DNA of 44,483 nt, taken from a virus. Shown here in pieces: positions 157-42,194 of this stretch. Below the pieces are notes generated by a model. It saw only the letters and a list, made by a program, of their open reading frames with translations. It was not told where the DNA came from and made no database searches. The stretch lies in IMG/VR virus record IMGVR_UViG_3300029375_000005, one strand, 5' to 3'. Every line of letters begins with the position of its first letter. Position 1 is the stretch's first letter. Both the position numbers and the translations under genes were made by a program.

Positions 157-378
157 CTATTTCATTCCTTTCAACATGTGCTGGAATTGCCCTGCCATCT
201 GCTGAACCTGATTAAGTTGCTGTTGAGAAATCTTCCCAGACTGTAACATCTTCTCAACTTCTGCTTTCGGGTCTCCCTTAAAATTCTGTCTAAATTGCAT
301 GAACTGCTGTATCATCTGCATTGGCCCGTTTCCCTGTGACATCCCACCACCGAGGGTGTTAAATAATGGATTACTCAT
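157..378 (-). CDS. Hypothetical small Gln-rich protein (73 aa)
   Basis: ORF track. SD GGGAGG lies 8 nt upstream of the ATG. 8-nt ATGAGTAA overlap with the upstream ORF. Composition is Q/M/G-rich (GGGMSQGNGPMQMIQQFMQFRQNF). Confidence 0.6.
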   Translation of the reverse strand: MSNPLFNTLGGGMSQGNGPMQMIQQFMQFRQNFKGDPKAEVEKMLQSGKISQQQLNQVQQMAGQFQHMLKGMK

Positions 379-841
379 CTGCGTTTCCTCCCTTGACTGC
401 TGATTCCTGCACGGTATTAGCTCTAACAGGTTCAGAAAATGAATTTAATCGGTTTATGATAGCTTCGTATTTGCCCTTCAAATCATCATATTCCTGTCTG
501 GTGACATATTTACTGTCCATGTTCTGAACAGACTGCTTAGGCGGCATCTGAGCACCTACTTCATGGTATTCAAACGTCCGTAATGGTTGTGGCATACCGG
601 AAACGTCTGTGGATTTTATGTAGAACTTTTCACTTTCACTGTCCATCAGTAAAACGCTTGTCCCGGGTGCTACCAGATAGGATTTTGCACCCACTTCGCC
701 AGATACCCACAGAATGCCACTATTATTCTGCTGTGGTTGCTGTACTGGTTGAGCTGGCATCTGGACAGGCTGTTGCTGAAATTGGTTCATCTGTCCCGGA
801 ACACCAAAACTATATTGATAAGGATTGTTATATAATGCCAT
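371..841 (-). CDS. Hypothetical protein, Q/P-rich N-terminus plus beta-rich core (156 aa from MALYNN)
   Basis: ORF 371..934 trimmed to Met32 (ATG at 841), because the upstream extension runs into the divergent promoter region. N-terminus QFQQQPVQMPAQPVQQPQQNN, followed by GILWVSGEVGAKSYLVAPGTSVLLMDSESEKFYIKS. Confidence 0.6.
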   Translation of the reverse strand: MALYNNPYQYSFGVPGQMNQFQQQPVQMPAQPVQQPQQNNSGILWVSGEVGAKSYLVAPGTSVLLMDSESEKFYIKSTDVSGMPQPLRTFEYHEVGAQMPPKQSVQNMDSKYVTRQEYDDLKGKYEAIINRLNSFSEPVRANTVQESAVKGGNADE

Positions 842-917
842 CTTATGCACCGCCTTTCTAATTATATTTTTGCATAGATGTATCAATCTAAAAAGTTCAA
901 AAAAGTATCGAAAAAGT

Positions 918-946
918 ATTGTGTAATAACGCACATAGATTTATAA
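918..946 (+). promoter_or_regulatory. Sigma70-type promoter P1 (TTGTGT-17-TATAAT) with operator AATAACGCACATAGAT filling the spacer
   Basis: -35 at 918-923, 17-nt spacer at 924-940, -10 at 941-946, just upstream of the RHH gene. The spacer sequence is repeated at 1151-1166 and 1175-1190. Confidence 0.55.
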
Positions 947-969
947 TTGAGAAAAAAGGAGGGATTAAC

Positions 970-1149
970 ATGGCAACAGAAGCGCAGAAAAGAGCGGTAA
1001 GAAAGTATGAGAACAGCAACTATAGGCTAAACATTGTCTTTCCAAAAGGAACTAAAGAGAGGATTGAAAAGCTCGGTCTTGGCAAGAGCAACAGTGCCTT
1101 TATCAGGGATGTTGTTCTGTCAGAGCTCGACAGGCTAGAAAAAAAATAA
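970..1149 (+). CDS. Ribbon-helix-helix (Arc/CopG-like) DNA-binding protein, 59 aa
   Basis: SD AAGGAGGG 6 nt upstream of the ATG at 970. Sequence MATEAQKRAVRKYENSNYRLNIVFPKGTKERIEKL...AFIRDVVLSELDR fits the beta-strand/helix/helix RHH pattern. The longer ORF-track start (919) lies inside the promoter. Confidence 0.7.
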   Translation: MATEAQKRAVRKYENSNYRLNIVFPKGTKERIEKLGLGKSNSAFIRDVVLSELDRLEKK

Positions 1150-1150
1150 A

Positions 1151-1166
1151 AATAACGCACATATAC
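1151..1166 (+). promoter_or_regulatory. Operator repeat copy 2 (AATAACGCACATATAC)
   Basis: 14 of 16 positions match the copy at 924-939. Sits immediately upstream of the -35 of P2. Confidence 0.5.
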
Positions 1167-1168
1167 GC

Positions 1169-1197
1169 TTGACATATAACGCACATAGATGTATAAT
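1169..1197 (+). promoter_or_regulatory. Consensus sigma70 promoter P2 (TTGACA-17-TATAAT) with operator copy 3 in the spacer
   Basis: -35 at 1169-1174. The spacer 1175-1191 contains ATAACGCACATAGAT. -10 at 1192-1197. Confidence 0.6.
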
Positions 1198-1258
1198 AAA
1201 GACAGTTAAAGAAAACCAATTACACAGCCCCTACAAGGGGCGGAACGGAGGAAAAAAG

Positions 1259-1462
1259 ATGAGAAAATTTGAATTGAAACAGGTAGCCCGAAACAATTCC
1301 GAAAACTTCGGATGTGCCAAAGTTACAGCAGCTTGGCTGTGCGGCACAGAGTCCCAGAAAGAGGATTTTATAAATTCTCTGGGCGAGAACTGGGTGAGAA
1401 TCCCGGCGGAACTTGTTGACGAGACCACCGAGCAGAATTTTATTTCTTACGCTCGGGCATAA
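1259..1462 (+). CDS. Hypothetical small protein (67 aa, MRKFELKQVARNN...)
   Basis: ORF 1169..1462 trimmed to the ATG at 1259, which is preceded by GGAGG plus 7 nt. The upstream part of the tracked ORF overlaps promoter P2. Confidence 0.55.
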   Translation: MRKFELKQVARNNSENFGCAKVTAAWLCGTESQKEDFINSLGENWVRIPAELVDETTEQNFISYARA

Positions 1463-1479
1463 GGAGGAGGGAAAAGAAG

Positions 1480-1683
1480 ATGTTAGAAAGAAAAATTGAT
1501 CGAGCAATTGAGAAAGAAGCAATAAAAACCGGGAAGATGGGAACCGAACTGGTGACCGTAGAAATGGCACTGACAAGTGGAGAAATCGAGGAGTTTAGAA
1601 ACCTCGAAAAATATGACAGCGATCATTATTTTTGGGAAATCGAGGGTAACACCCTTAGAATTTCCTATACAGAAGAAATTTAA
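1480..1683 (+). CDS. Hypothetical small acidic protein (67 aa)
   Basis: ORF track. SD AAGGAGGAGGG upstream of the start. Last gene of the plus-strand unit, followed by a terminator. Confidence 0.6.
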   Translation: MLERKIDRAIEKEAIKTGKMGTELVTVEMALTSGEIEEFRNLEKYDSDHYFWEIEGNTLRISYTEEI

Positions 1684-1763
1684 GAAAACGCCCGGAACTG
1701 TTCTTGAAATAGTACTGAATAAGTGCAAATTTTAATATTTCTATTTTGGAAAGACGCAAAATA

Positions 1764-1795
1764 AGCCCCTGAGAGATAATCCTGGGGCTTTTATT
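1764..1795. terminator. Bidirectional rho-independent terminator
   Basis: Stem AGCCCC (1764-1769) / GGGGCT (1784-1789) followed by TTTTATT on plus. The minus-strand reading gives AAAAGCCCC...GGGGCTTATTTT. Lies between convergent units. Confidence 0.7.
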
Positions 1796-1801
1796 GTCGT
1801 C

Positions 1802-2002
1802 TTAACACACTTTAATTATTTTATTATTCACCCTCCGGCTTAATCGTTTCGCCGTGGATATACTCACATTCATCTGTTCTGCACAGTATTCAAGAGTGTG
1901 TTCCTGACATCTCAGCCGAAACAGTCTTTCTTCGTCCGGTGTAAAATTGCACTCTAACAAGAATCTGTCTATATCTTTCTTAGTGAACACATATAATTTC
2001 AT
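1802..2002 (-). CDS. Small sigma-70 region-4-like HTH protein (66 aa)
   Basis: LFRLRCQEHTLEYCAEQMNVSISTAKRLSRRVNNKI matches the region-4 / LuxR-like HTH pattern. Start moved to the second ATG (2002), 7 nt after AAGGGG. Confidence 0.6.
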   Translation of the reverse strand: MKLYVFTKKDIDRFLLECNFTPDEERLFRLRCQEHTLEYCAEQMNVSISTAKRLSRRVNNKIIKVC

Positions 2003-2025
2003 GAGCATACCCCTTATTAATGCAA

Positions 2026-2331
2026 TTAACGCTGATTCTGTGCAAGATACTCCGTGAGCTTCTGCTTTGTTTTTTTTAACTCCTCGACGTTGTTTCCGCT
2101 GATCTGACTGTCTAGCATGGTTGATAACACTTCCAGAATTAATGAATCTCGTTCTGCGATTCTCCGAAGACTTTCATAATCTCGTCTATCATGCTCTTCC
2201 AGTGTCTCTACTCGCTTATTAAGTCGAAATACCGGAGTAATCCATTTAAAAATTACGGCTGCCGCGCCTCCGACAATAGACACCCCTCCGCAGATAGAGA
2301 GGAAAATCTGTACAAATTCTGATATGCTCAT
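2026..2331 (-). CDS. Membrane-anchored coiled-coil protein (101 aa)
   Basis: One N-terminal TM segment (FVQIFLSICGGVSIVGGAAAVIF), then charged helical sequence. SD AAGGAG present. ATGA overlap with the upstream ORF. Confidence 0.65.
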   Translation of the reverse strand: MSISEFVQIFLSICGGVSIVGGAAAVIFKWITPVFRLNKRVETLEEHDRRDYESLRRIAERDSLILEVLSTMLDSQISGNNVEELKKTKQKLTEYLAQNQR

Positions 2332-2717
2332 TTATTCTCCTTTTCCCAGTAATATACCGGGATCTCATTTCCGGAATCCCATGTATCGAAATATTTGCCA
2401 TCCTGCACTGTCACCACATGACCATCTATACAGAGAATGTATGTGCCTGTTGGATGATCTGCGCAAAAGTCATTGACTGTATAAATATATCGCTCCGACT
2501 GCTCAATCAGTTTTCGCCTGTATCCATGCTTATAGAGGTACGCTCCCCAGACATAATTTGCGCTCGGCATATCTGACAGAGTACATGCCTGTATCATTAA
2601 TCCGGCGAATACTGTTTCCCAGTCGAAGCCAGTTGCTTTACATATTGCCCGGACAACGCAATCTCCTGTTCTCTTATCCTTAACAGGATTTGGATTGAAA
2701 TATTCCCATCTATCCAT
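2328..2717 (-). CDS. Hypothetical protein with candidate Cys-His-Asp triad (129 aa)
   Basis: GDCVVRAICKATG ... CIDGHVVTV ... FDTWDSG has spacing reminiscent of papain-like peptidase or toxin folds. 1-nt overlap (TGATG) with the MuF gene. Confidence 0.65.
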   Translation of the reverse strand: MDRWEYFNPNPVKDKRTGDCVVRAICKATGFDWETVFAGLMIQACTLSDMPSANYVWGAYLYKHGYRRKLIEQSERYIYTVNDFCADHPTGTYILCIDGHVVTVQDGKYFDTWDSGNEIPVYYWEKENK

Positions 2718-3946
2718 CAGTCAATCCCCTTTGCTGTTTTATAGCGTTTTGCCGCTCCTCTGGCTTTAGCGGCGTTCTGGCGGTTCCACTTCGCGATCAT
2801 GAGCCGGTCTTGCAGTTCCCTCAGATCGTTCTGCTTGCAGTAATCTTTATATGTAGCATTTTGTTTCTGTAAAAGATAAGACTTCCGGTCAAGGTCTTGT
2901 TGGAGGGCAAATCTTGTCTGTTCGTCCTTGCAGTTATCAACCGCCGATTGCAGTCCAAGAACCTCTCTCTTCGTTTTGCGGATTCTTCGCTCATAAGTGC
3001 GTTGTCGTTGTTCTTTTTCATACTGCTTTCCTTTGTCGGCTTTATCCTGTGCTGATAGTTCTGCATAGGGATTGAATTCCCCGTCACTCGCCCCAAAACT
3101 ATGCCGGCAGTTGACCCCTGATAGTCCACTTGCCGTTCCATATCCGGTCAATGAGAAAGGTGGAAATTTCTTACTCTTGCCAGAACGAGAGTATATCTTG
3201 CCTTGCCAAAACGAGTGATTTCCCGGATTCTCGCCGCCGTCACCCGTCCTCGCTCCTATGTGCGCACTGACCAGAACTAAATCCCAGTCCATTTCTTCCA
3301 TGCGTTTTAGGGATATATCTCCCGTAGCCTGTGCCACACCAGTTCTGACAGAACGCGCAACTGCTGTTTCAATCGTGTCTTTTCTGCCAGATGGATATGT
3401 GACGGTAGCACCATCACTCACAACGTTATTGACTGCCTCTTTGATGGCTTGCGTATACCCAACCGCCCCAGTCATCACATGGTTATATGCAAGGTCGCAT
3501 TGCTCAATGTAGAGTCTCTGAGCGGCACTTGCGGTTGTTCTTGTAAAGTTCTTCCACTCTCCCATGGTCGCAAGCATATTCCGCTCCATGAGTCTTATCA
3601 TAGCTGGAGACTGTTCGAGCGGTACAGGGCTTAATCCTGCCGCCTTGTATACCTTGTCATCATAGTTCATTGCGGTGATTCCGGCATCTTCAAACGCTTC
3701 AAGAAGTTCCTGCTGTTCACGTTTGGTATATCTGGATAATTCTGCCAGAATGTCCTCTAGCAGTACACCGGATTCCTGTAGCGTTCTGATTCTCCACGCA
3801 TCAGCATTGGTCAGAATATAATCCTCACCTCTGCCGATTCTTGCCATCATCCGCGACACGATTTCAGAGATGATATACTGATGCAGTTCCTCTGCTATCT
3901 GTTCACTGCCCTCTGTTATCCGGCGTAAATATTCTGGGCTTAACAT
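2717..3946 (-). CDS. Minor head protein, Mu F / SPP1 gp7-like head morphogenesis protein
   Basis: 409 aa located directly after the portal gene. Typical MuF core (SGVNCRHSF) and a basic C-terminal tail. Confidence 0.85.
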   Translation of the reverse strand: MLSPEYLRRITEGSEQIAEELHQYIISEIVSRMMARIGRGEDYILTNADAWRIRTLQESGVLLEDILAELSRYTKREQQELLEAFEDAGITAMNYDDKVYKAAGLSPVPLEQSPAMIRLMERNMLATMGEWKNFTRTTASAAQRLYIEQCDLAYNHVMTGAVGYTQAIKEAVNNVVSDGATVTYPSGRKDTIETAVARSVRTGVAQATGDISLKRMEEMDWDLVLVSAHIGARTGDGGENPGNHSFWQGKIYSRSGKSKKFPPFSLTGYGTASGLSGVNCRHSFGASDGEFNPYAELSAQDKADKGKQYEKEQRQRTYERRIRKTKREVLGLQSAVDNCKDEQTRFALQQDLDRKSYLLQKQNATYKDYCKQNDLRELQDRLMIAKWNRQNAAKARGAAKRYKTAKGID

Positions 3947-3948
3947 AA

Positions 3949-5394
3949 CTATTCATCTCCAAACAGTTTTGGTTCGTCTGGCTGAGCTTCTTTGACCATT
4001 GCTTTCGCTTCTTCCTCAGTCATTCCCTCAAATTTTACAAAATACAACCATGCCGGTACCTTGCCAGTGGTCACATACTGCCACCATCTTGCACGGTCGT
4101 TTTCTCGCACATACAGGATGTCTCCAAAATCATAATTGACTTCATAAGCTCCGACTGGTGCAAGCCCGTACAGGTCAGCGTAGACGTTCAATGCGTAAAT
4201 AACTTCATCCAGACAGGATTCCAGTTTGTCCCTTACATCTTTGATGAACTGCACTGTCCTCTGCTGTTCTGCTTCTACTCCCGTAGCCGTCTGAATACCG
4301 CTAGATTCGTTAAAAACAAAGTACCCATTGGAGAATCCAATCTTGTACCCCAACTGGCTTAAAAGGGCATTTATGCCGCTTATACGAGTATCTGTGTTGA
4401 GTTGTGGATTGATTTCTTGATAAAACTCTTTCTCGTCCTGTCCGAATACATTCTTAACAAAATGTGGTAAGCTCATCTCGTTCCGTCTGTTCTCCATGCT
4501 CTGTGGTGACATAGCTGATACAGGCGTGCCGCTTGGCATCAGTAGTCTATCATCTGCCAGAACAATCTTCTGAGAATCAAAAATCTCTCCGGCATTACGG
4601 CTGTATGCAATGTCCAAATCCTTTAATTCCTCAATGGCTTCGGCAAATATCGGCAAGCCCAGTGGCGTACTGATATCCACATTGTTCGCCTGCGGTGTTC
4701 GGAGTATTCCGTACAGAGGTCCATCTAGCTTCTCGCCATTTGCTTTAAGTATCGGCGGTGTATCTGTCATGAGGTCGGCCCACTTGGTCTGTTTAAGGTC
4801 AATCTTATCACCGATTGACTGAGGGGATTTTGATACATAGGCTCTATTAGAAACGTAGTACGGATAGGTCGTCACGCCATCCACGGTAGTCTCAACAAAT
4901 CTATGATATTCAAGCCGTGTATAGTATTTCCGTCCAACAGTATAAGAATCCTTGAATATGATTCCCTTAATTTCCTGATTATCATAGTCCACGATCATCA
5001 CATCTGCCGGAGTAAATACGTCAATGCTTTCACCATTTGGCTTAATAAATACTGTTCCATAAGCACAGCCATATTCTACCCAGTGACGGATTTGAAAATA
5101 TACCTTGTCGATCTGTTCCTGTAGCCACGTAGCCCTTGCAGAACCGTCTATCTGAATGCCGATCGCCAGCGTTGCGAGCCGAGCTGTTTCTGAGCAGACA
5201 GATTTAGCAAAATTGATCGTCTTGATATTATTCTTATCATCCAGCCATTCCGGCGCACCTCTGTAAATGTTCGCGCACCGGTTAATCAGCGATTCCATCT
5301 CTGGAAATTCTGCTGCCTGAATGTTGAAGTCCTCTTCGGCTTGTTTTTTGAATATCATATTAAACCACCTTTTTAGTGTTGTTATAAGTCCCAT
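3949..5394 (-). CDS. Portal protein
   Basis: 481 aa, size and position after TerL fit a portal. Alternative start at Met13 (5358) has a better SD (AAGGTGG). Confidence 0.85.
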   Translation of the reverse strand: MGLITTLKRWFNMIFKKQAEEDFNIQAAEFPEMESLINRCANIYRGAPEWLDDKNNIKTINFAKSVCSETARLATLAIGIQIDGSARATWLQEQIDKVYFQIRHWVEYGCAYGTVFIKPNGESIDVFTPADVMIVDYDNQEIKGIIFKDSYTVGRKYYTRLEYHRFVETTVDGVTTYPYYVSNRAYVSKSPQSIGDKIDLKQTKWADLMTDTPPILKANGEKLDGPLYGILRTPQANNVDISTPLGLPIFAEAIEELKDLDIAYSRNAGEIFDSQKIVLADDRLLMPSGTPVSAMSPQSMENRRNEMSLPHFVKNVFGQDEKEFYQEINPQLNTDTRISGINALLSQLGYKIGFSNGYFVFNESSGIQTATGVEAEQQRTVQFIKDVRDKLESCLDEVIYALNVYADLYGLAPVGAYEVNYDFGDILYVRENDRARWWQYVTTGKVPAWLYFVKFEGMTEEEAKAMVKEAQPDEPKLFGDE

Positions 5395-6635
5395 TATGCA
5401 CTGTAACCTCTCCTGTTAAACAACGGCTCATAAGCATATCTAAGTGCCGAGATTGCATGATCATCTCCGTCAGGATAACCACTTATTACATTTCCCTCTT
5501 TGTCCCGATCGTACTCATATTCTGTGATTTCTTTATATGCGTTCGGTGTTCGCTTCGGGTCAATGACTATAGTCTTTGTCTGTAAGAATTTGAAACCATA
5601 CTCGATACTTCCCGGTCCTTTGATTGCTCCTCTTGCAGGAAGTCCGGCATCCCGGAAGTCATTCACAGACTTAGGTTCCGCAGAATCACATATCATTGTG
5701 TAATCGTCATAGCCTTTTTTCTTGATCCAATCAGCAGTCTTAGAGTTGCTCCATTTATTTACATACAGCTCGTCAATCAGATATATCTTCTCTCTGGCAG
5801 AATCATAATAAGTTCGGAGATAGCAGAAGGCATCCGGGTACCATCCATAATCTACGCCAGCGAAAATGCGGTCCATGTGGCTGATCTCTTCGTCTGTAAT
5901 ATCTCTGATTTCGAGATATTCAAATACGTTTCCGCCGTCACCATTCGGGACGCCCAGGTATTCATGCTCATAGGCTTCTGGGCGAATCTGTTTGAGATGT
6001 TCGGCATCGTCAAAAAACTGTTGTCCAAGCCATTCCTTTGGAACCGTTCTGTAATCAGAAGAATGAACATATCTGTCGTCTCTCTGGATTAATACTTCCT
6101 CATTCATGAAGTTATGTCTTGTTTTTGGTGGGTTGAATGACATAAAAGTCCAGTAGTCTTTTCCACCTCGCATCGATGACTGCAAGATGCTTCGTACTTC
6201 TTCCATTCCGGTAAAAGTATCACATTCTTCCAGCCATGCAAAAGCAAAGTATCCGAATGGAGCTTTTAACGACTTTAATTTCATTCTGTCATCAACGCCA
6301 CGAAACATTATAGTCTGTCCAGTCGGCATATATGTTATTTTCATTGGGCTGACAGTACATTTAAAATCACCATCAAGATGCAATGCTGATATAGCAAATT
6401 GCATCTGTGAAAAAACGCTATCTCTTAATGTGTTCGCTGTTTTTCTGAATATGATACAATGCTTATCTCTATTCTCTTTTCTTGTCATTAGCAATATAAT
6501 GACAATGCTCACGAAAGAAGACTTGCAGCTTCCACGTCCACCTTTGAATACATAATAAGTATGTTTGTGTTCTAAAATATCTCTTAGCACATTATCGAAA
6601 TTATACGGAAATAAATCATCTGCGGATATTTTCAT
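5394..6635 (-). CDS. terL: Terminase large subunit
   Basis: Walker A FKGGRGSCKSS, an acidic Walker B region and a C-terminal nuclease-like region (DGDDHAISALRY). 413 aa. Confidence 0.95.
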   Translation of the reverse strand: MKISADDLFPYNFDNVLRDILEHKHTYYVFKGGRGSCKSSFVSIVIILLMTRKENRDKHCIIFRKTANTLRDSVFSQMQFAISALHLDGDFKCTVSPMKITYMPTGQTIMFRGVDDRMKLKSLKAPFGYFAFAWLEECDTFTGMEEVRSILQSSMRGGKDYWTFMSFNPPKTRHNFMNEEVLIQRDDRYVHSSDYRTVPKEWLGQQFFDDAEHLKQIRPEAYEHEYLGVPNGDGGNVFEYLEIRDITDEEISHMDRIFAGVDYGWYPDAFCYLRTYYDSAREKIYLIDELYVNKWSNSKTADWIKKKGYDDYTMICDSAEPKSVNDFRDAGLPARGAIKGPGSIEYGFKFLQTKTIVIDPKRTPNAYKEITEYEYDRDKEGNVISGYPDGDDHAISALRYAYEPLFNRRGYSA

Positions 6636-11659: not shown

Positions 11660-12541
11660 TTAATATTCAATAAAATCAGATAATTCCATCTGACCATCTA
11701 AATTGTCGTCGTTCATCCACCACCTAAATACATCCTCTCCGGTCTCCCATTGAGTTTCTAATTCTTTTTCTTTTCGAGCATCTAACATTCTTTCAAAAGC
11801 TCTAATATAAGACTGTTTGTACTTAGGAAAATCTGCAAATTCTTTACACCTCTTTTTCCCGGCCATAGGACAGCCAATACAGCCAACACGATCATATCCA
11901 CATTTGTACAAATCACAAGTTTCTATATGCTCTGAATTGATAAATTCCCATATATCAGAATCCTTCCAGTCAATGATGGGATTGACAACCATTTTGTTTT
12001 TCTGCATACAAAGTTCATTCATTCTGCGATTGGCGTCATTGTCGTTCATTAGCATAACTGATGTGAATTTTTCTTTAGTTGCCTTTGTCGCACCAATTTT
12101 TTCAAATTCTTCTCTTTCTTTTCTCTGCCTGCTTTCAGCCCATCTTATACCAGTGGCAATATATCTATTTGTGCACCCTGTTTCTTTAAGAACTTGACAG
12201 CAGTAGCGAACTTGCCTTGTTGGTGGCATCAATTTTAATGGAATTAATTTCCACATCGTGATATGTTCGCCTTTATACTTCGGCATTTCTATTTCGCATT
12301 TAATTCCTTTTTCTTCCAAACTTTTAAATACATTTCGTATGTGCCGTACAGTTTGCGGTGCATCTGCCGTGGTGTGACTATTGTGTACCTCAAATGGTAT
12401 GCCGCTCCTGCGAAAGAGTTCTAGCATCACATCGGAGTCTTTTCCTCCGGAATATGTGCACACAAGTGGCTTTCCATAATGTTTCAACGAAAGATCAGAT
12501 GCAAGTCGAATTCTCTCAATTGCTTTTTGCTCTAAATCCAT
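11660..12541 (-). CDS. PAPS reductase / PP-loop ATP-pyrophosphatase family protein (DndC/IbrA-like)
   Basis: PP-loop CTYSGGKDSDVMLEL and a C-terminal Cys cluster CDLYKCGYDRVGCIGCPMA. 293 aa. Confidence 0.8.
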   Translation of the reverse strand: MDLEQKAIERIRLASDLSLKHYGKPLVCTYSGGKDSDVMLELFRRSGIPFEVHNSHTTADAPQTVRHIRNVFKSLEEKGIKCEIEMPKYKGEHITMWKLIPLKLMPPTRQVRYCCQVLKETGCTNRYIATGIRWAESRQRKEREEFEKIGATKATKEKFTSVMLMNDNDANRRMNELCMQKNKMVVNPIIDWKDSDIWEFINSEHIETCDLYKCGYDRVGCIGCPMAGKKRCKEFADFPKYKQSYIRAFERMLDARKEKELETQWETGEDVFRWWMNDDNLDGQMELSDFIEY

Positions 12542-19585: not shown

Positions 19586-20278
19586 CTAACTGATACTCAT
19601 TTGAGCGTTACAGTCACGTATCATCATTACTGTATTGGTGCATGGATGCCAATTTCTGACATATTCCATAGATTCTTCAAATCTCAGCTTAGGAATGTTA
19701 TTGCGGGCATTTACTGTGAAGTAAGTCTTTATATCCCTGTTGCATTCAGCAAATACTTTCTTGCCAATTTCCTTGTAAGCATTTGATTCTTTCCCACCAA
19801 GGTGAGCAATTACGACACTTGACACTAAGTCCCTAATAGCTTCCTGCTGTGCATAGTCAATAGTCATGGTGTTTTCAAGTCTGTTAAGCCGTTCTTCGTG
19901 ATCTAAGAATCCTGTCGCAATAACCTGTATCTGTTCAACTGTCGTCAGTGGTTTCCGGTATGAGCCTGTCTTTCTGATTGTCGGAAGAACTTCATCCATA
20001 ACCCATGATTCGAATTTCTCTGCTGATGGAAGTTTCGATTTCATAATCAAGCGGTACAAATCTCCCTCTGTTATGAAACTTGCTTCCTGATTCCTGCCGA
20101 GAGAATCTGTGAGGTGGTGTTTTACCACCCCACGGCAATGCTGTTTAAGTGCATTAACCGTGTCCTTGTAACCAAGTGCTTTCGCAACGTCAGCTCCAAC
20201 AAAATACGGTTTCCCGTCAATTTCTATTGTTCGAATTTCTCCGAACTCTCCTGAATTAAAAATCTGTAATTCGTTCAT
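19586..20278 (-). CDS. Antirepressor (Bro-N domain plus ORF6C-like C-terminus)
   Basis: LQIFNSGEFGEIRTIEIDGKPYFVGADVAKALGY ... ESWVMDEVLPTIRKTGSY is the Bro-N signature. Confidence 0.85.
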   Translation of the reverse strand: MNELQIFNSGEFGEIRTIEIDGKPYFVGADVAKALGYKDTVNALKQHCRGVVKHHLTDSLGRNQEASFITEGDLYRLIMKSKLPSAEKFESWVMDEVLPTIRKTGSYRKPLTTVEQIQVIATGFLDHEERLNRLENTMTIDYAQQEAIRDLVSSVVIAHLGGKESNAYKEIGKKVFAECNRDIKTYFTVNARNNIPKLRFEESMEYVRNWHPCTNTVMMIRDCNAQMSIS

Positions 20279-20658: not shown

Positions 20659-21003
20659 ATGACATTTGGCGAGAAAATCAAGCAAGCCAGAACGGCAAAG
20701 AAGCTGACTCAGAAGCAACTTGCAGAAAAAATCAATGCAAAGCATAATTCAATTAGCGACTGGGAAAAAGATAAGTGTAAACCAGATATGGACACCATTG
20801 AGCTTCTATGTGGCGTTTTGGAAGTAACACCGACATACCTCATGGGTTCTAAAAGCGATGACGATTATGCAATCATAATTGGAAATCTTATGTCAGAACC
20901 TGACATCTTAGATTTTATCGAGGAATACAAAGCACTCGATAAAGAAGATAAGAAAGCAATAAAACAAATAGTTTCATCACTAAACAAAAAGAGCAAGGGT
21001 TAA
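20659..21003 (+). CDS. cI-like XRE-family HTH repressor (114 aa, no peptidase domain)
   Basis: FGEKIKQARTAKKLTQKQLAEKINAKHNSISDWEKDK. SD AAAGGAGG upstream. Divergent from the cro-like gene. Confidence 0.85.
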   Translation: MTFGEKIKQARTAKKLTQKQLAEKINAKHNSISDWEKDKCKPDMDTIELLCGVLEVTPTYLMGSKSDDDYAIIIGNLMSEPDILDFIEEYKALDKEDKKAIKQIVSSLNKKSKG

Positions 21004-21992: not shown

Positions 21993-22168
21993 ATAAAAAA
22001 CCGCCCTGGCATTGGCGTACCGGGACGGCGTTTATACATCTCCGGAGAGATGCTATATTCTGGCAAAACATATTGTATCATCTTCGGAGCAGTCGAACAA
22101 GACAGAAAATTTGTTCGGCTGTTATTTTTATACCTAAAAACAGCTACATAAAGAAAAGAGGAATAAAA

Positions 22169-23347
22169 ATGGCGAAGAAAAGAAAGAAATATCCAAAATT
22201 GCCGAATAACTTCGGCTCTATTCGGTACCTTGGCAAGAACCGGAGAAACTGCTTCGCAGTGCATCCACCGGCTACACCGGATGATACTGGCAAACTAAAA
22301 CGTCCGCCGGCGATCTGCTACGTGGATGACTGGATAAAAGGCTTTACTGTCCTGACAGCTTACAAAGCCGGCACGTATCAACCAGGCATGGAGCGGACTC
22401 TTGAGGTATCCCCCACAACCGACATAGACACTCTTATAAGCCGCTTGATTGCCGACTACAATACAATCAAGGGTGTAGAGGATAAGCACCCGGAAATCAA
22501 GAAATTGACGTTCTCAGAGGTATATAAACAGTTTTATGCGTGGAAGTTCCCAAATGGGACAAAACTGTCATGCAGTTCAAGGGAAGCATATCGGACGGCT
22601 TACACGAACTGCACCGTTCTGCACAATCGCATATTCGAAGATTTAAAGGCTCCTGATATGCAAAAGGTTATTGATGATTGCAAGCTGAAAAAGCAAAGCC
22701 AGATGGCTATTTTAACTCTATTCAAGCAGATGTACAAATATGCCGTATACTCAGAAATTGTAACGGAAAATAAGGCGTTATATGTCCATGTTAATGCTGA
22801 TAATGACACCGAACATGGAACGCCATTTTCTGATCAGGAACTACAAACTTTATGGGATAATGCCAACGATCCAGAAGTGCAGCTCATTCTTATTATGTGC
22901 TATTCTGGTTGGAGAATTGGTGAAGTGTTAAAACTTACGACCAACTTGGAAGAGAAATACTTTCAAGGTGGAATCAAAACAAAAGCCGGTAAAAACAGAA
23001 TTGTTCCGATACATCCTGCCATATACCATTTTGCTGAACAGAAAGTGCTGGCACAAGATGGAAAACTATGTGTATATACTCAGCAACACCATAGAAAAGC
23101 GTTGTTCTATCCTACACTGGAACGTTTGGGAATAGTCGGAAATCCGAAACACACGCCGCACGATTGTCGACATACCTTTTCTGCGCTGTGTGAAAAATAC
23201 GGTGTCCGGGAGAATGACCGAAAGCGAATGCTCGGCCACTCTTTTGGTGGAGATGTTACAAACGCTGTGTACGGCCACAGAACACTGGAAGAACTCCGGA
23301 CAGAAATAGAAAAGATAAAAGTTCCATTTGTGACTAACTGTGACTAA
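22169..23347 (+). CDS. int: Tyrosine recombinase / phage integrase
   Basis: Catalytic motifs HTPHDCRHTFSA and LGHS....AVYGH near the C-terminus. Start set at MAKKRKKYPKLP (22169) with an AAGAGGA SD. Confidence 0.9.
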   Translation: MAKKRKKYPKLPNNFGSIRYLGKNRRNCFAVHPPATPDDTGKLKRPPAICYVDDWIKGFTVLTAYKAGTYQPGMERTLEVSPTTDIDTLISRLIADYNTIKGVEDKHPEIKKLTFSEVYKQFYAWKFPNGTKLSCSSREAYRTAYTNCTVLHNRIFEDLKAPDMQKVIDDCKLKKQSQMAILTLFKQMYKYAVYSEIVTENKALYVHVNADNDTEHGTPFSDQELQTLWDNANDPEVQLILIMCYSGWRIGEVLKLTTNLEEKYFQGGIKTKAGKNRIVPIHPAIYHFAEQKVLAQDGKLCVYTQQHHRKALFYPTLERLGIVGNPKHTPHDCRHTFSALCEKYGVRENDRKRMLGHSFGGDVTNAVYGHRTLEELRTEIEKIKVPFVTNCD

Positions 23348-23671: not shown

Positions 23672-25099
23672 TCATTTAGAAATTTCTGTAATTCTGGTGA
23701 ATGTTCCTTTTGGAATAAATTCAAAAACAAACCCTTCTGTCGGATGTGGGATGCGGATGAAATACCATTTCAGCCCCGAACTGTCTGTTTCTGTGTACTT
23801 CATCACCTCTACAACTGCACCTTTTTTTAACTGCGGAAACAGTTTTGACGGGCTGTTTTTGTTTGATTTTGTATAGCATTTTGTGTCCTTTTTGATCTGT
23901 GCAATATAGGCTCTGGTGTTCTGCTTTTTGGTTGTATCTGAGTCTGAAACTGACGTTGTATTTTTAACTAAACTGTAATTTGGAGTACAGAATTTTGTTC
24001 CGGGAAGGTTGCTGTTGTAGTAACTTTTCTGACATACGCCACCACCATTTGCGATAATTGTAGAGCCACCAGAAGTGTTTCCTTCGACTGTCCAGAATCG
24101 ATCTCCTGATACCTTTGTTACGATTCCGGTATGTGTAAATGTGCCATTTCGATAAAAAATAACAATATCTCCAATCTTCGGATTGCTGTTCAGGGTAAAC
24201 AAATCCGCCATTGTCGGACAGTAAACGTATGGCCAGTGCTTCAAAAGTTTCTTCGCTGTGTCTAAGCCGAATGCTTTCATGAAGCACCAACTCACGAATG
24301 CAGCGCACCATGGCTGCCTTTGATAATCCGGTTTAATATCTCGCCAGTATTTCGTATAATTATTTTCTCCGACATTTGCTGTCTTACTATCAAGCTGACT
24401 ATTGCTTGCCTTTTCAAGATATCCGGTTTCATTCTTTGCGATCTGGATTAATTTATCAATTGCTTTCATGTCTGTCTCCTCACTTTCCGGGAAATATGTT
24501 TTCAACGCATTATAAACAAATCTCTGTCTGTCCTTATATGCTCCCACCTGATTCCCTGTGTCCGTCTGGCAGGCTGCATAGAGATTATCAAGCGTATATG
24601 GCTTCTGAGTCTTTGCTAAAATCCTCGTTACTGCTCCCTGTCCGCCTTGGTGTCTAAAGTTCACGCACATAGCTTGCGCTCTGGCGTCTGTAACGCCCTG
24701 CTTAAGGGCTTCGTCTGCATAGGTGGATAACTGTTCATCCATAAGGCTATCTTGGCATTTAACGCCTAAATCGGACGAGATAAGAGCAACTATAGTGTCT
24801 GCGAGCTGTGATACCCTGGAAATATTAAAACATTCCCAGTTTGCGGTCTGGACCTGTTCCAAAAGTCTGACCTTGTCTATCTTCTTCCACTGTTCCGGGT
24901 CGGCATCGTAAATTCGTTCCAGAAGTGTTTTAGCTTCGATTCCGTACCACTGTCCCGCCCCGATTGTGATTGCGTGTTCTTCAGAAGAATTGGTGTAGGC
25001 TTCCGTGAAGTCCGAATAATCCTGCTGTCCGTAAACCTGTTCGCCAGTTTCGACCGCATAAATAATTTTCCTGAGAACTACTTTTTGATTATTTGTCAT
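23672..25099 (-). CDS. Multidomain endolysin: N-terminal lysozyme/transglycosylase-like domain, CHAP domain, C-terminal SH3-like wall-binding domain
   Basis: CHAP motifs QPWCAAFVSWCF, FTHTGIVTKV and TVEGNTS. C-terminal LKKGAVVEVMKYTETDSSGLKWYFIRI is SH3-like. The call for the N-terminal 200 aa (VETGEQVYG...) is weak. Confidence 0.85.
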   Translation of the reverse strand: MTNNQKVVLRKIIYAVETGEQVYGQQDYSDFTEAYTNSSEEHAITIGAGQWYGIEAKTLLERIYDADPEQWKKIDKVRLLEQVQTANWECFNISRVSQLADTIVALISSDLGVKCQDSLMDEQLSTYADEALKQGVTDARAQAMCVNFRHQGGQGAVTRILAKTQKPYTLDNLYAACQTDTGNQVGAYKDRQRFVYNALKTYFPESEETDMKAIDKLIQIAKNETGYLEKASNSQLDSKTANVGENNYTKYWRDIKPDYQRQPWCAAFVSWCFMKAFGLDTAKKLLKHWPYVYCPTMADLFTLNSNPKIGDIVIFYRNGTFTHTGIVTKVSGDRFWTVEGNTSGGSTIIANGGGVCQKSYYNSNLPGTKFCTPNYSLVKNTTSVSDSDTTKKQNTRAYIAQIKKDTKCYTKSNKNSPSKLFPQLKKGAVVEVMKYTETDSSGLKWYFIRIPHPTEGFVFEFIPKGTFTRITEISK

Positions 25100-36388: not shown

Positions 36389-36898
36389 TTATATTACTTC
36401 ATAAGTGTTTTCGTAGCGTACTGACAATGGCAATAACCAATCCTGTACGCCACTCTCCTGTGGCTCTAAACCATAGGAGTTATCGCGAGTAATGCGCTTT
36501 ATCACTCGTCCCTGTGAAAGTTCAGGAAACGCATTTAAGCGTGTCTCAGAGCCGTTTATGACAACTGGTTCTCGACATATCCATTTACCGAGATTATCAA
36601 GGAACTTCTGAACAGATAACTTCTGCCTTTCCTTGTCGGATGCTGTTCGGTATACCACGTAAAATGGGTACTGGCATACCTGGTGCATTACGCCACAAAC
36701 ATCTTCTTTTTCTGAATAAATCAAAGCTCCATTATCTGCCGAGAACGCAATTCCTGATTCCTTGCCAAGTTCTTCAAACTTGATTGTTTCATTTTCATAC
36801 AGTCCCGGATACTGGTTCAGAAGTGCTTTCATGGCATCTGTCAGAATTTCGTATCCGGTTGCGTCTTTTCCGATAGGTTTATCTGCTATGCCTGCCAC
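36389..36898 (-). CDS. Tail-completion / minor capsid family protein (169 aa)
   Basis: Called from its position in the head-tail joining block. Confidence 0.55.
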   Translation of the reverse strand: MAGIADKPIGKDATGYEILTDAMKALLNQYPGLYENETIKFEELGKESGIAFSADNGALIYSEKEDVCGVMHQVCQYPFYVVYRTASDKERQKLSVQKFLDNLGKWICREPVVINGSETRLNAFPELSQGRVIKRITRDNSYGLEPQESGVQDWLLPLSVRYENTYEVI

Positions 36899-37370
36899 CT
36901 CCTGCCTGTGCTTTTACTTTGCGAACCCATGTGTCACCATATTGCCGTTTAGCGGCATCAAACCACTTTGCCTGTGCCCGTGGGTGAGCCTGTTTGGTGT
37001 ATTCAAGATTTTCCTTTGCGGCTGTCCGACCAGAAAACTGACTAACGAGAACTTTCTTTGCTCCACGTCTTGCGTAGGGACTTCCAGTTGCTTCATCAAC
37101 CATTCCTTTCCCCTCGTACAGAAAACGTCCATAAGGAGCCGCCGCCGCGCATACTTTCCCAGTTCCTTGTAAGGATGTACTCTCAACTCTTGTTCGGTTG
37201 ATAAAGTCCCCTGTAATCATCGGCATAAACGGCACCATACTGTCCATAACCATTCCATCAAGGAGATACTGGGCTTCTTGGTACTGTCTGGAGAACCTGT
37301 CCATATTTAACTTGATTTTCATATCTCCATCGACTACGGAGAATCCTTTAAAATGATGAATCTTACTCAT
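36879..37370 (-). CDS. Minor capsid / HK97 gp10-like head-tail joining protein (163 aa)
   Basis: PYGRFLYEGKGMVD ... FDAAKRQYGDTW resembles the minor-capsid/gp10 family. Confidence 0.65.
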   Translation of the reverse strand: MSKIHHFKGFSVVDGDMKIKLNMDRFSRQYQEAQYLLDGMVMDSMVPFMPMITGDFINRTRVESTSLQGTGKVCAAAAPYGRFLYEGKGMVDEATGSPYARRGAKKVLVSQFSGRTAAKENLEYTKQAHPRAQAKWFDAAKRQYGDTWVRKVKAQAGGGRHSR

Positions 37371-37371
37371 A

Positions 37372-37833
37372 TCACTTACCTAGAATCTCAAAGTGTGGAA
37401 TCAGTGTATATGGACCGCCTACACTGGTAATCTTAAACACATTATCCTTGTTCTCGTTCATGTACTGGTAGAATCCATTCCGATAATCACCATCAGATAC
37501 CGTTCCACCAGTCCACTCACCCTCCCAGAAGAATGACTCGTCCGAGAATGTGATAGTGTCTTCCAGAGCGTTGTTAATCTGCTGTTTCCACTCTTTAGGC
37601 GGCACCCATGGAAGAATCTTGCCGTCTTTATCAGTAATTGTTATATCGCCGTTCTGGACAGTGTATCGAACGTGTAATTGTGCGTTGTCAGTTGCGTCTG
37701 GTCCGTATTTTTTAAGGATTGCTCCCTTGTCCGTAATGAGGTCAACGCCGGATAAAACATGAGGATACCAGTACACATCTCCTGTCGTGGCTGATTCGTA
37801 ATAATTAAAAACCGTCACCGTTTTTTCGTACAT
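37372..37833 (-). CDS. Putative head-closure protein (153 aa)
   Basis: Called from its position. Begins KTVTVFNYY, typical of small beta-barrel head-closure proteins. Confidence 0.55.
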   Translation of the reverse strand: MYEKTVTVFNYYESATTGDVYWYPHVLSGVDLITDKGAILKKYGPDATDNAQLHVRYTVQNGDITITDKDGKILPWVPPKEWKQQINNALEDTITFSDESFFWEGEWTGGTVSDGDYRNGFYQYMNENKDNVFKITSVGGPYTLIPHFEILGK

Positions 37834-37842
37834 GATACCCTC

Positions 37843-38484
37843 CTATCCTTCGCATATTGCTTTTGAAAATCTATCAGAGAATGATTTTATTCGGACAATA
37901 TTACCTTTGCACTCTTCCGGCACTTTCCCGTAAAAGATAATGCTTTCTGGGTGCAACTTCTCAATCATGGCGTTGTAACCAGAAAGAAACAGTTCTTTCT
38001 TTTTCTTTCCGTTCATACAACCAACAGAAGATACTGCAACTGTTCCACCCTCTGGCTCCCCATCGAAACACCAATCGTAAGAATCCGGTGTACTCCATGA
38101 TATTGTTGGAATCACACGGCAACCATATTCTTGCAGATATGCACCTATCCAGTGTTTGCGGTAATGGTTGTATATCTGGATGGCTTTAGGGAAATCGGTA
38201 TAGGTGCTGAAATCCGGTGTTAGAATGTACCGGAATTTGCTCAACTTGTCCACGTATCTATCTGGATTTCTCCATAGTGCATCAAATTGGTAATCATCTA
38301 AGAAGAAATGAACAACTTTCTCTTCTGGATTATTGCATTTTCCTCTGGCATAATTAAAACCGACAAATTCGCAGTTACCCTCGAATGTCTCAGGTTTTAT
38401 CTGTGGTATACCGTATTCGCCGACACCGGGGAATATACGGCGGTTTAGATTTTCGTAAGCTATACTCGTCTCTCGGTTTGCCAT
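37843..38484 (-). CDS. DUF4417-like protein (213 aa)
   Basis: VHFFLDDYQFDALWRNPDRYVDKLSKFRYILTPDFSTYTDFPKAIQIYNHYRKHWIGAYLQ matches my recollection of the DUF4417 core. Confidence 0.7.
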   Translation of the reverse strand: MANRETSIAYENLNRRIFPGVGEYGIPQIKPETFEGNCEFVGFNYARGKCNNPEEKVVHFFLDDYQFDALWRNPDRYVDKLSKFRYILTPDFSTYTDFPKAIQIYNHYRKHWIGAYLQEYGCRVIPTISWSTPDSYDWCFDGEPEGGTVAVSSVGCMNGKKKKELFLSGYNAMIEKLHPESIIFYGKVPEECKGNIVRIKSFSDRFSKAICEG

Positions 38485-38487
38485 AGA

Positions 38488-38982
38488 TTACTTCTTTCCG
38501 CTTCCAAAGAACCATGAATCAAAGTTTTTCATTCTGCGCTTTCTAGCTCTGTCATAAGTGGTGGTAGTACGGCTTGTATCGTGCAAAGCACTTGTATCAC
38601 CTTTTTCAGATGCCTTTGAAAATTTGTGCATTTCATCTCTCATGGCTGTACTGGCATTGACTAATTTTCGATGTTCTATAGCAAGCCTTTGATTTTTAAA
38701 TAACGCCTCTGCACTTCCAAGTTTTGCGATTTTCTTTTTACTCTCGCTTAATCTGTCATTTATATAATTCATTGTCTTTACTGCTTCACTCTTTGTCTTG
38801 ATTGACTTAAAGTAGCTAGTGTTTTCCGAATTAATGACCTTCTCAAGTTTGCTGTCTTTTTTAACAGTTCCGCTTCCCCTTAAAGCATCACTTTTCTTTG
38901 AAGAATTAAAGTACACCTTCGCAATAAGCTTAGAAACCGGCTTCTCGTTACTTAACCCACTACTGCCACCACGTCCGCCCAT
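38488..38982 (-). CDS. Hypothetical basic K/S-rich protein starting MGGRGGSSG (164 aa)
   Basis: ORF track. Lys/Ser/Thr-rich, predicted to be largely helical or disordered. Confidence 0.55.
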   Translation of the reverse strand: MGGRGGSSGLSNEKPVSKLIAKVYFNSSKKSDALRGSGTVKKDSKLEKVINSENTSYFKSIKTKSEAVKTMNYINDRLSESKKKIAKLGSAEALFKNQRLAIEHRKLVNASTAMRDEMHKFSKASEKGDTSALHDTSRTTTTYDRARKRRMKNFDSWFFGSGKK

Positions 38983-38986
38983 AAAA

Positions 38987-39262
38987 TCACTCTTTCTGCA
39001 TTGCCTGCTTAATAACCTGATTCACGCCAGTTGCCGACAATCCGTTAAACATACCGACCGCAACCGCTGTGATATAATCCGTTGCCGGGAAGTCCGGGAT
39101 AACTCCCATCCCGACAGCTCCGAGAATGCCACCAATAACCGCCATGATTACCGGAATCCATTCATCAGAGATTCTTTTTGATGCTTTACAGCCCATTCCT
39201 ACGATATAGCATATCATAACGATTGCTATGCATGAACCTAGTGTTGAAATGTCCATAATCAT
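38987..39262 (-). CDS. Holin-like membrane protein (91 aa, 2-3 TM, charged C-terminus)
   Basis: TM1 LGSCIAIVMICYIVGMGC, TM2 WIPVIMAVIGGILGAVGMGVI, TM3 ITAVAVGMFNGLSATGV, tail NQVIKQAMQKE. Resembles Gram-positive phage holins of the IPVI..G..G...GvNQi.KQ type. Confidence 0.6.
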   Translation of the reverse strand: MIMDISTLGSCIAIVMICYIVGMGCKASKRISDEWIPVIMAVIGGILGAVGMGVIPDFPATDYITAVAVGMFNGLSATGVNQVIKQAMQKE

Positions 39263-40016: not shown

Positions 40017-40037
40017 GCCAGTTACCTCCTACGTTTG

Positions 40038-41204: not shown

Positions 41205-41281
41205 AAAAAATCCTTTCTACCCATAATTGTTAAGGTATTGGGTTAGCGGCTATACCCTGATGTATAGTCGGTGTAAAAAAA

Positions 41282-41914: not shown

Positions 41915-41991
41915 AACATCCTCCTGGTCGTGTTTATTGACCTGCCGCCGCAGGTAAATGGATTAAGCCAGTTAGACCACTGGCAGGGTAA

Positions 41992-42063: not shown

Positions 42064-42194
42064 TGCCGCCTGTAACGGACAGTTAAAAAAAACTGAGTTG
42101 AGTTTCACCTTTTTCGCTATAGCGTAAACCCACCTGAGACATAGACCACCTGTATACAAACAGCTTAACTCTAAGCGGATTAAAGCAGAACGCC

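Follow-up and report, generated by a model that had tools for sequence, protein, structure and literature searches.

Aca14 is a ribbon-helix-helix (RHH) protein that represses its own operon together with a neighbouring operon encoding AcrIF6 and a Cas5f homolog (Feussner et al. 2026, 10.64898/2026.07.27.740549). We here describe a locus that resembles this system, namely a small plus-strand cassette at positions 918–1795 of the IMG/VR virus record IMGVR_UViG_3300029375_000005. That whole stretch of DNA, henceforth called the window, was analysed over its full length of 44,483 bases and is the complete 44.5-kb genome of a temperate, siphovirus-like phage. The cassette encodes a 59-amino-acid (aa) protein predicted to have the RHH fold, followed by two acidic 67-aa proteins, ORF2 and ORF3, and it has two promoters, P1 and P2, that carry copies of the same short box. 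Homologous regulators and their boxes covary at a constant promoter geometry in other genomes, and on balance we favour the explanation that the locus is an Aca-like, autoregulated anti-defence cassette.

The resemblance to the Aca14 system extends to the small size of the RHH protein and its N-terminal helical extension, to operators (here predicted ones) that overlap the core promoter, to the presence of the same operator at the regulator's own promoter and at that of the adjacent cargo operon, and to an orphan Cas5 in the cargo neighbourhood (Cas5f there, Cas5b in sister cassettes here). The Aca14 operator is one AT-rich inverted repeat over the −10 element, whereas the boxes found here are 14-bp direct repeats that occupy the spacer and adjoin the −35 element. 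Furthermore, the csx20 cargo of P. multocida shares the aca14 operon, whereas here the regulator comes first and has its own promoter, and the hosts are Proteobacteria in the one case and Lachnospiraceae or Oscillospiraceae in the other. BLASTP of the RHH protein against P. multocida Aca14 (WP_005725436.1) gave no alignment, and comparison using hhalign gave an E-value of 0.06 with a shallow profile and of 3e-4 (probability 39%, 40 columns) with a profile of 79 sequences. We use Aca14 as the closest precedent, by an analogy that stops short of placing the locus in the Aca14 family.

Anti-CRISPR (acr)–aca loci with helix-turn-helix (HTH) regulators such as Aca1 and Aca2 share with the cassette a very strong early-type promoter and a co-encoded autorepressor (here a predicted one), as well as small, acidic and variable cargo with regulators shuffled between cargos. 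In Mu-like Pseudomonas phages such loci are embedded in the head-gene region, as is the case here, and 29 cassettes with HTH regulators that occupy the same genomic slot in related phages follow the acr–aca pattern closely. The differences are that the regulator of the window is of the RHH and not of the HTH type, that the cassette lies on the opposite strand with a terminator of its own, and that the window has no homolog of a validated Acr. The immI region of phage P22 is similar in having an Arc-like RHH protein in the late region of a temperate phage, and members of the present family match Pfam Arc; Arc turns off a strong promoter following an early burst. Arc is however a tetramer on a 21-bp palindromic operator and its cargo is a 300-aa antirepressor, whereas the present cassette is dispensable and its cargo exchangeable. 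Several boxes in the same orientation over promoters are also typical of Omega (pSM19035) and MetJ, but those operators consist of contiguous 7–8-bp units serving plasmid or metabolic regulons, as compared to boxes of about 14 bp placed 24–35 bp apart in a phage cargo cassette. With regard to cargo, the anti-CRISPR AcrIB3 derives from Cas5b, and viral cas genes that occur as orphans have served as anchors marking anti-defence loci (Katz et al., 10.1101/2023.06.24.545427). A 229-aa protein of the sister cassettes is likewise a Cas5b homolog encoded as an orphan within an accessory locus of phages, with a divergence from real Cas5b (32% identity) similar to that of AcrIB3 (38%); the Cas5b-like gene is, unlike ORF2 and ORF3, absent from the window, and the reported AcrIB3 homologs are limited to Listeria.

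Regulatory anatomy of the cassette

The features of the cassette are as follows.

890–918, plus strand: A-rich stretch 5' of P1, part of a conserved flank that is common to all cassette types and runs through the TTG of the −35 element
919–947, plus strand: P1, promoter of the RHH gene; TTGTGT (919–924), 17-nt spacer, TATAAT (942–947)
925–940, plus strand: box O1, AATAACGCACATAGAT, core at 929–937, filling the P1 spacer
970–1149, plus strand: gene for the 59-aa RHH protein, Arc/AmrZ-like and basic (pI 10.0), with Shine–Dalgarno sequence (SD) AGGAGGG at 957–963
1151–1166, plus strand: box O2, AATAACGCACATATAC, 2 bp after the RHH stop codon and 2 bp upstream of the P2 −35 element
1169–1197, plus strand: P2; TTGACA (1169–1174), 17-nt spacer, TATAAT (1192–1197)
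1175–1190, plus strand: box O3, tATAACGCACATAGAT (recorded as TATAACGCACATAGAT in the feature list), filling the P2 spacer
1227–1241, plus strand: GC hairpin GCCCC-TACAA-GGGGC in the ORF2 leader, 5 nt before the SD GGAGG (1247–1251)
1259–1462, plus strand: ORF2, 67 aa, pI 5.0, a cargo gene found behind RHH, HTH_3/19 and HTH_26 regulators
1480–1683, plus strand: ORF3, 67 aa, pI 4.6, a cargo gene
1689–1703, plus strand: junction, from blastn, at which the related loci L092 and L095 hold 946 bp more (a 64-aa protein and the Cas5b homolog)
1751–1803, both strands: terminator-type hairpin with core arms at 1757–1769 and 1784–1796

Three ORFs with strong SDs, two promoters and three copies of a repeat had been proposed in the initial annotation, and direct reading of the sequence located all of them: GGAGG lies 7–8 nt upstream of each ORF, both promoters are present, and the three repeat copies were recovered independently by a repeat search. 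Only these three sites match the 15-mer of the box with at most two mismatches in the entire window, and the repeat is not a chance occurrence. Its 9-bp core, ACGCACATA, has one extra copy at 24663–24671 (plus strand) inside the endolysin gene, which is probably due to chance since about 0.3 copies are expected in the genome.

P2 was found to be the sole 12/12 match to a sigma-70-type promoter on either strand of the window, with no such match in shuffled sequence, and it is by this measure the predicted strongest promoter of the genome. The only other near-consensus promoters (11/12) lie at 20573 (minus), 20606 (plus), 21233 (minus) and 19144 (plus), clustered at the divergent junction between repressor and early genes that presumably represents the lysis–lysogeny switch. 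P1 combines a perfect −10 element with a weak −35 element (3/6), and for that reason was not listed by the promoter scan. Homology between the window and L002 or the other HTH cassettes stops at position 921, and because every cassette has the upstream flank in common as far as the TTG of its first −35 element, the odd TTGTGT of P1 is explained as a recombination joint. In sister phages the −10 element of P1 is conserved, with variation in the last three bases of the −35 element (TTGCAC, TTGTAC or TTGTTT).

The bidirectional terminator previously suggested to end the unit was also recognized, as the hairpin at 1751–1803 is stable on both strands, with folding energies of −23.6 kcal/mol (z −4.4) for the plus strand and −22.2 kcal/mol (z −4.9) for the minus strand, and has a U-rich tail either way. 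It closes the cassette on the plus strand and a gene for a sigma-like protein on the minus strand, and is common to the other cassette types. The additional proposal that transcription of the cassette would collide head-on with late transcription is weakened by this hairpin, which separates the incoming late genes from the cassette; such a collision is unlikely to matter because no version of the slot lacks a terminator separating the cassette from the late genes.

Covariation of regulator and operator

The RHH gene is under purifying selection, with a ratio of non-synonymous to synonymous polymorphism (pN/pS) of 0.06 and variation mostly at third codon positions. The protein has more than 300 close homologs and matches phrog_31631 at 1.7e-18, a PHROG family of unknown function, and some homologs are named in their sources after PutA-DNA or plasmid RHH structures. 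A direct scan against Pfam, NCBIfam and PADLOC gave no family match, sequence searches of the PDB with the single protein and with a profile of its close homologs gave chance matches only, and tblastn against 50,697 GenBank phage records gave no match. An exhaustive profile search yielded 195 relatives, 79 of which were used for a deep profile that matched AmrZ (3qoq, E 0.002) and the RHH domain of PutA (2ay0, E 0.009), and more weakly HP0222, ParG and Arc (E 0.06–0.8). Three family members match Pfam Arc (best 8e-9) and one matches RHH_5. The RHH fold claimed for the protein was in this manner supported transitively, through the profile of distant relatives and the Pfam matches of family members. 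Judged by eye, the succession YRLNIVFP, KGTKERIEKLGL, GKSNS and AFIRDVVLSELDRLEK may represent a strand-helix-helix layout with a G-x-S/T/N turn between the helices, and G27, T28 and I32 are nearly invariant in the family. The 59 aa amount to the RHH domain and leave no room for a tail that could bind a toxin.

Homologs at 70–83% identity occur in prophages and other elements of Blautia, Dorea, Roseburia, Eubacterium, Clostridium, Lachnoclostridium, Falcatimonas and Oscillospiraceae. About 20 loci from different genomes of Lachnospiraceae and Oscillospiraceae were compared with regard to their boxes, which gave the consensus ATWACGCACATATA (A-W-A-T-W-ACGCAC-A-T-A-T-A, about 14 bp). At most of these loci a box lies in the 17-nt spacer of a near-consensus promoter before the RHH gene, a further box is found just upstream of the −35 element equivalent to that of P1, often with two more farther up, and a second promoter follows directly after the RHH gene with boxes at the same two positions. 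The same putative operator is found at the regulator's own promoter and at that of the neighbouring cargo both in the window and at most of the other loci, with one to four copies per promoter, and in most of the other genomes the TAA stop codon of the RHH gene itself begins the box that precedes the second promoter. The ACGCAC motif has a density of 10.7/kb in the regulatory DNA of these RHH genes versus 0.39/kb elsewhere in the loci, a 27-fold enrichment, and 87 of 88 such boxes are on the gene strand. At two loci (L107 and L109) the RHH gene comes after another gene and boxes are present at the second promoter only, and at L120, with an RHH homolog of 64% identity, no boxes were seen. Searches for a palindrome within the box, or for likeness to the Aca14 half-site CATATACA, gave short partial matches only.

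A different box was seen at the locus of a more distant regulator. At L096, the RHH protein is only 32% identical and the layout is identical, with a different box, CATAGTTTAATAA, at the corresponding positions. A parallel was seen among the HTH cassettes of the slot, where two HTH classes track two spacer palindromes, TCACYCRWTGAGTGA and CCACCAAATTGGTGG. Those cassettes (L002 426–1989, and the slots of L005, L008, L021, L056, L058 and others) encode a 55–59-aa HTH_3/HTH_19 regulator, sometimes fused to an N-terminal domain of 170–250 aa, and have promoters of the form TTGACA-17-TATTAT with the palindrome in the spacer; a natural hybrid HTH protein places the palindrome specificity in a C-terminal SGKSKCPDYVRQ segment.

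This covariation at a constant geometry is our chief reason for proposing that the boxes are bound by the RHH protein, which would thereby block the core promoters of P1 and P2. The autoregulation of P1 and gating of P2 that had been proposed for the window are supported by the conservation of the box and by the different box at the same positions of L096, and with these sequence comparisons as basis we consider control of both promoters by the RHH protein very probable. The 59-aa protein would bind the direct-repeat box ATWACGCACATATA, one copy of which fills the spacer of P1 and two of which flank the −35 element and fill the spacer of P2. Upon entry into a cell lacking the RHH protein, host RNA polymerase would fire from P1 and especially from P2, giving an early burst of ORF2 and ORF3. 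As the RHH protein builds up, O1 at P1 and O2 and O3 at P2 would become occupied, and both promoters would be kept low, also in the lysogen. The hairpin acting on both strands would confine transcription of the cassette, end the late transcript arriving from the right and insulate the neighbouring genes. Arc in P22 immI follows a scheme of this kind, and for Aca repressors, recently including Aca14 (10.64898/2026.07.27.740549), it has been demonstrated by experiment.

A separate element was noted at ten of the Lachnospiraceae loci (L107, L108, L111 and L113–L119), which have a stem-loop with a purine-rich loop directly after the −10 element of the second promoter. Its stem varies in a compensatory manner (TTAGTCC/GGGCTAA, TTGTCC/GGACAA and TTGTCAG/CTGACAA), and the P2 transcripts at these loci seem to begin with it. 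The window does not have this element.

Slot polymorphism and cargo genes

The surrounding genome is laid out as follows.

371–841, minus strand: 156-aa Q-rich head-region protein (phrog_21718), the left flank outside the cassette, which adjoins the slot in all related phages
1802–2008, minus strand: 68-aa sigma-70 region-4-like protein, the right flank outside the cassette
2717–3946, minus strand: minor head protein
3949–5394, minus strand: portal
5394–6635, minus strand: large terminase
19586–20278, minus strand: Ant antirepressor
20659–21003, plus strand: CI-like repressor
22073–23347, plus strand: integrase
40038–41204, minus strand: major head protein

The window also encodes a primase/helicase, tail fibre genes and an endolysin, and related contigs are 43–46 kb in size and derive from human gut samples. 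Except for the cassette, the plus-strand genes are those of the repressor and integrase module at 20.6–23.3 kb; no other credible plus-strand unit was seen among the morphogenesis genes, in agreement with the initial annotation, which described the cassette as the sole such unit of the late region.

Using the 68-aa sigma-like protein as the anchor of the slot, we fetched 80 related loci, which together with the window gave 81 phages. The slot was empty in 44 of these, with a length of 57–101 bp, whereas 29 had HTH_3/HTH_19 cassettes and eight had RHH cassettes, with three of the 81 having exactly the form seen in the window. In MT835739, with flanks 89% identical to those of the window, 57 bp replace positions 877–1805, and MT839401 has the same flanks around a distinct 1.56-kb cassette that has the terminator in common with the window. 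The earlier description of the cassette as a moron was supported by this absence or exchange at the same junction between flanks of about 89% identity, and the cassette has its own promoter and its own terminator and is placed between conserved genes. Base composition did not mark it as foreign, with a GC content of 40% in the cassette, 44–45% in the flanks and 41% in the genome. The cassette is thus a mobile accessory unit in a hypervariable slot between the sigma-like gene and the next head gene, and the sigma-like gene is present on at least 575 IMG/VR contigs.

The 68-aa sigma-like protein is barely more than a sigma-70 region-4-like HTH encoded amid head genes, and may be a regulator of late genes; no promoter for the head genes downstream of it was identified in the window. 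The terminator comes after its gene in all relatives. In empty slots (e.g. L001 3078–3134) two versions of the hairpin are seen, each with a self-complementary stem of its own (CCGGAAAC/GTTTCTGG or CTTAGAC/GTCTAAG), and some empty slots have one to three copies of a short repeat similar to TCTATGACTT beside it. As the hairpin is retained in empty slots, the junction marks the end of an operon throughout these phages.

Both ORF2 and ORF3 can be taken as real genes, with pN/pS values of 0.16 and 0.24, respectively, and variation concentrated at third codon positions. Their homologs (21 clusters for ORF2 and 62 for ORF3) are all close, unnamed, and from gut metagenomes or gut phage assemblies. 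Both proteins are small, soluble and acidic, and are not like membrane proteins or nucleases. Structure prediction, which had been suggested as a route to their function, was successful in part: the AlphaFold2 model of ORF3 was confident (mean predicted local distance difference test score, pLDDT, 84), with an alpha-beta-alpha-alpha-beta-beta order, whereas that of ORF2 was poor (pLDDT 61) and its Foldseek matches meaningless. ORF3 did not have meaningful neighbours either, with de novo designed alpha/beta proteins as the best in the PDB (E 0.075 or worse) and one uncharacterised gut siphovirus protein as the sole match in BFVD. The GC hairpin in the leader of ORF2 folds with −11.2 kcal/mol (z −1.9), which is weak evidence taken alone. 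Its GCCCC/GGGGC stem accompanies ORF2 in every context (L092, L009 and L096), with different loops, and at L096 the hairpin (2754–2770) follows a GIY-YIG gene within an operon. A role in RNA processing, stability or translational control is possible; an Rfam scan of window positions 700–2100, at E-values up to 1, gave no match.

The neighbourhood of these two genes in other genomes was informative. In all eight of the places shown for its commonest variant, ORF3 was preceded by ORF2 and followed by the gene of a very acidic 64-aa protein and then that of the 229-aa protein, with an extra 264-aa gene before the 229-aa gene at L094. This array occurs behind three kinds of regulator, namely the RHH protein of the window (L092 and L095, phages of one family with the window and with the array in the same slot), an HTH_26 protein, and distant RHH proteins in other elements. 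The 229-aa protein is a Cas5b homolog (PADLOC Cas5b 4e-23, TIGR01895 7e-20), its 32% identity being to the Cas5b of a cas8b-cas7-cas5-cas3 operon of Listeria, and it is an orphan with no other cas gene nearby. Its gene is translationally coupled to that of the 64-aa acidic protein (1217–2097 in L056, as in L065, L077 and L080; 3224–4107 in L092), and the two look like a candidate Cas5-decoy anti-CRISPR pair. By blastn, window positions 850–1688 correspond to L092 2379–3209 and positions 1704–2049 to L092 4156–4496, so that the cassette of the window equals that of L092 minus exactly 946 bp. From this alignment the window appears to hold a shortened form of a five-gene cassette, consisting of the genes for RHH, ORF2, ORF3, the 64-aa acidic protein and the Cas5b-like protein. 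Sister phages have an internal deletion in ORF3 (L006) or lack it (L045). In the same slot, ORF2 also heads operons of the form ORF2-HTH-c6. Both cargo genes are thus seen elsewhere with HTH regulators and no RHH gene, and the RHH gene in turn is found with at least eight unrelated cargos.

Additional genes were seen in these operons and cassettes. AP2-domain and GIY-YIG (homing-endonuclease-like) genes lie within the operons having ORF2, ORF3 and the Cas5b-like gene at L094 (3417–4211), L096 (2243–2737) and L097 (1466–1984), and at L106 (3259–3744) and L111 (3286–3721) the cargo behind the second promoter of the RHH locus is a ParE-family toxin (Pfam E 3e-5 and 1e-4) followed by an acidic partner of 61–70 aa. 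Two Listeria 'phage' matches of the Cas5b-like protein were tried as AcrIB3-type genes and rejected; because their neighbours are Cas8b, Cas7 and Cas3, they are genuine cas operons and confirm only the Cas5b homology. One of the records examined, L121 (OR846720.1, 'Listeria phage LM 4-11-1', UNVERIFIED_ORG), has a type I-B cas8b-cas7-cas5-cas3 operon at 36555–42100. This operon points either to a phage that carries its own CRISPR-Cas system or to an assembly that includes bacterial DNA.

Proposed anti-defence function and alternative explanations

Three kinds of function had been offered for the two small proteins, i.e. toxin–antitoxin-like, exclusion or anti-defence. We favour the last of these, because an orphan Cas5b recurs with ORF2 and ORF3 and because the cargo shuffles between Aca-like regulators. 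As at acr–aca loci, a small protein of DNA-binding type is co-encoded whose predicted operator overlaps the promoter of the locus, and the cargo differs among close relatives. That ORF2 and ORF3 themselves are anti-defence proteins is a tentative assignment, to which we give somewhat less than even probability, with type I-B CRISPR-Cas as our best guess of a target. A bolder version, in which the 59-aa protein would found a new RHH-type Aca family recognizing direct-repeat boxes and ORF2 and ORF3 two new anti-CRISPR families, probably directed against type I-B and acting with or beside a Cas5b decoy, appears less likely than not.

Several observations weigh against an anti-defence function. 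By comparison with NCBIfam, Pfam, PADLOC, PHROG, PDB and BFVD, none of the cargo genes encodes a validated anti-defence protein or a homolog of one. The initial annotation recognized neither 67-aa protein, and this outcome was unchanged here, as ORF2 and ORF3 gave no match to NCBIfam (including its Acr models), Pfam, PADLOC or PHROG functions, and neither a PDB fold nor a named protein was matched. The link to Cas5b is guilt by association, since the window itself lacks the Cas5b homolog. In other genomes, the platform of RHH gene and P2 drives ParE-like toxin pairs, helical acidic proteins of 46–58 aa and other proteins of unknown nature, which argues that the regulator marks accessory cargo generally and not anti-defence genes only. 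The spacing of the boxes also varies (24, 26 or 35 bp), and they are direct repeats, unlike the inverted repeat of Aca14. Finally, a 106-aa protein of L002 (1216–1536), whose family is present in 29 slot cassettes, has an N-terminus of about 38 residues (MKYNKSEIMKNAWSIVRQ...ALKRAWEKAKE) that weakly matches NCBIfam AcrIIA3 (E 1.6e-4), but the match is not solid, as it covers the N-terminus only and the remainder is unlike anything found; the other cargo proteins of the sister cassettes gave no match to the NCBIfam Acr models.

The possibility that the cassette is instead a moron for lysogenic conversion or defence, with ORF2 and ORF3 expressed from the prophage and helping the lysogen through superinfection exclusion or abortive infection at a steady level set by the RHH protein, agrees with the temperate nature of the phage (integrase, repressor and Ant), with the sigma-A-type promoters and own terminator of the cassette, and with the toxin/partner pairs driven by the RHH platform in two genomes. 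Prophage hotspots, moreover, often mix defence and counter-defence genes. We nonetheless consider this explanation unlikely, as ORF2 and ORF3 had no PADLOC match and are small, soluble and acidic, unlike membrane or nuclease proteins, and as they recur beside an orphan Cas5b, a kind of protein with demonstrated anti-CRISPR activity. A toxin–antitoxin system of type II, with the RHH protein as antitoxin and ORF2, ORF3 or both as toxin, might be thought of since autoregulating RHH antitoxins acting via operator repeats are common, one source labels an RHH homolog as 'antitoxin', and ParE-like cargo is found in the two genomes just mentioned. That reading was however contradicted and rejected on every structural point tested, and we hold it to be highly improbable: the RHH gene and ORF2 are 110 bp apart with an independent 12/12 promoter in the gap, the regulator has no tail for binding of a toxin, ORF2 and ORF3 are acidic with no match to a toxin family, regulator and cargo recombine freely with other partners (at least eight unrelated cargos for the RHH gene, and HTH regulators for ORF2 and ORF3), and where ParE occurs its own partner gene comes along.

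A developmental module of the P22 immI type, wherein small effectors made in an early burst would act as antirepressors on the phage's own repressor or as takeover proteins on host machinery, and would be kept in check by a repressor similar to Arc, would fit the Arc/AmrZ-like family, the location among late genes of a temperate phage and the strong early-type promoter under presumed negative feedback. It is nevertheless improbable, considering that the slot is empty in 44 of the 81 relatives, that the cargo can be replaced and contains neither an Ant nor a BRO domain, and that a canonical Ant is already encoded at 19586–20278. Slightly more improbable still is that the window carries a decaying remnant, meaning that the five-gene cassette was functional and that ORF2 and ORF3 have no independent role after loss of the 946 bp. 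The clean difference from L092 and L095 and the further erosion of ORF3 in the sister phages L006 and L045 are in line with decay, but neither ORF2 nor ORF3 is disrupted and both evolve under purifying selection, the identical form was found in three of the 81 phages, and ORF2 is present in other operons lacking the Cas5b-like gene.

The anti-defence reading has consequences for the search for such genes. To our knowledge, the number of anti-defence genes described from phages of the dominant Firmicutes of the gut is very small, and their discovery usually relies on HTH Aca regulators. The present locus offers a second anchor recognizable from sequence, made up of an RHH family and a sharply defined 14-bp box in consensus promoters, and it lies in a hotspot, found on the contigs counted above, in which dozens of small unknown proteins, an orphan Cas5b and HTH cassettes substitute for each other. 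Should the proposed circuit be true, RHH control of anti-defence would reach beyond the single Aca14 example of 2026, to a different RHH lineage, operator geometry and bacterial phylum, and ORF2, ORF3 and their partners would be nominated for anti-CRISPR tests. If a new Aca family is indeed at hand, it would be widespread in phages and prophages of Lachnospiraceae and Oscillospiraceae, and the box ATWACGCACATATA could serve as a sequence tag for mining anti-defence genes of the gut virome.

One additional gene of the window may be mentioned. PAPS-reductase-like genes are found among the Aca-regulated cargo shown in supplementary Figure S10 of the Aca14 paper (10.64898/2026.07.27.740549), and the window has a PAPS-reductase-like gene at 11660–12541 on the minus strand (phrog_424 at 2.8e-43), located in the early region.

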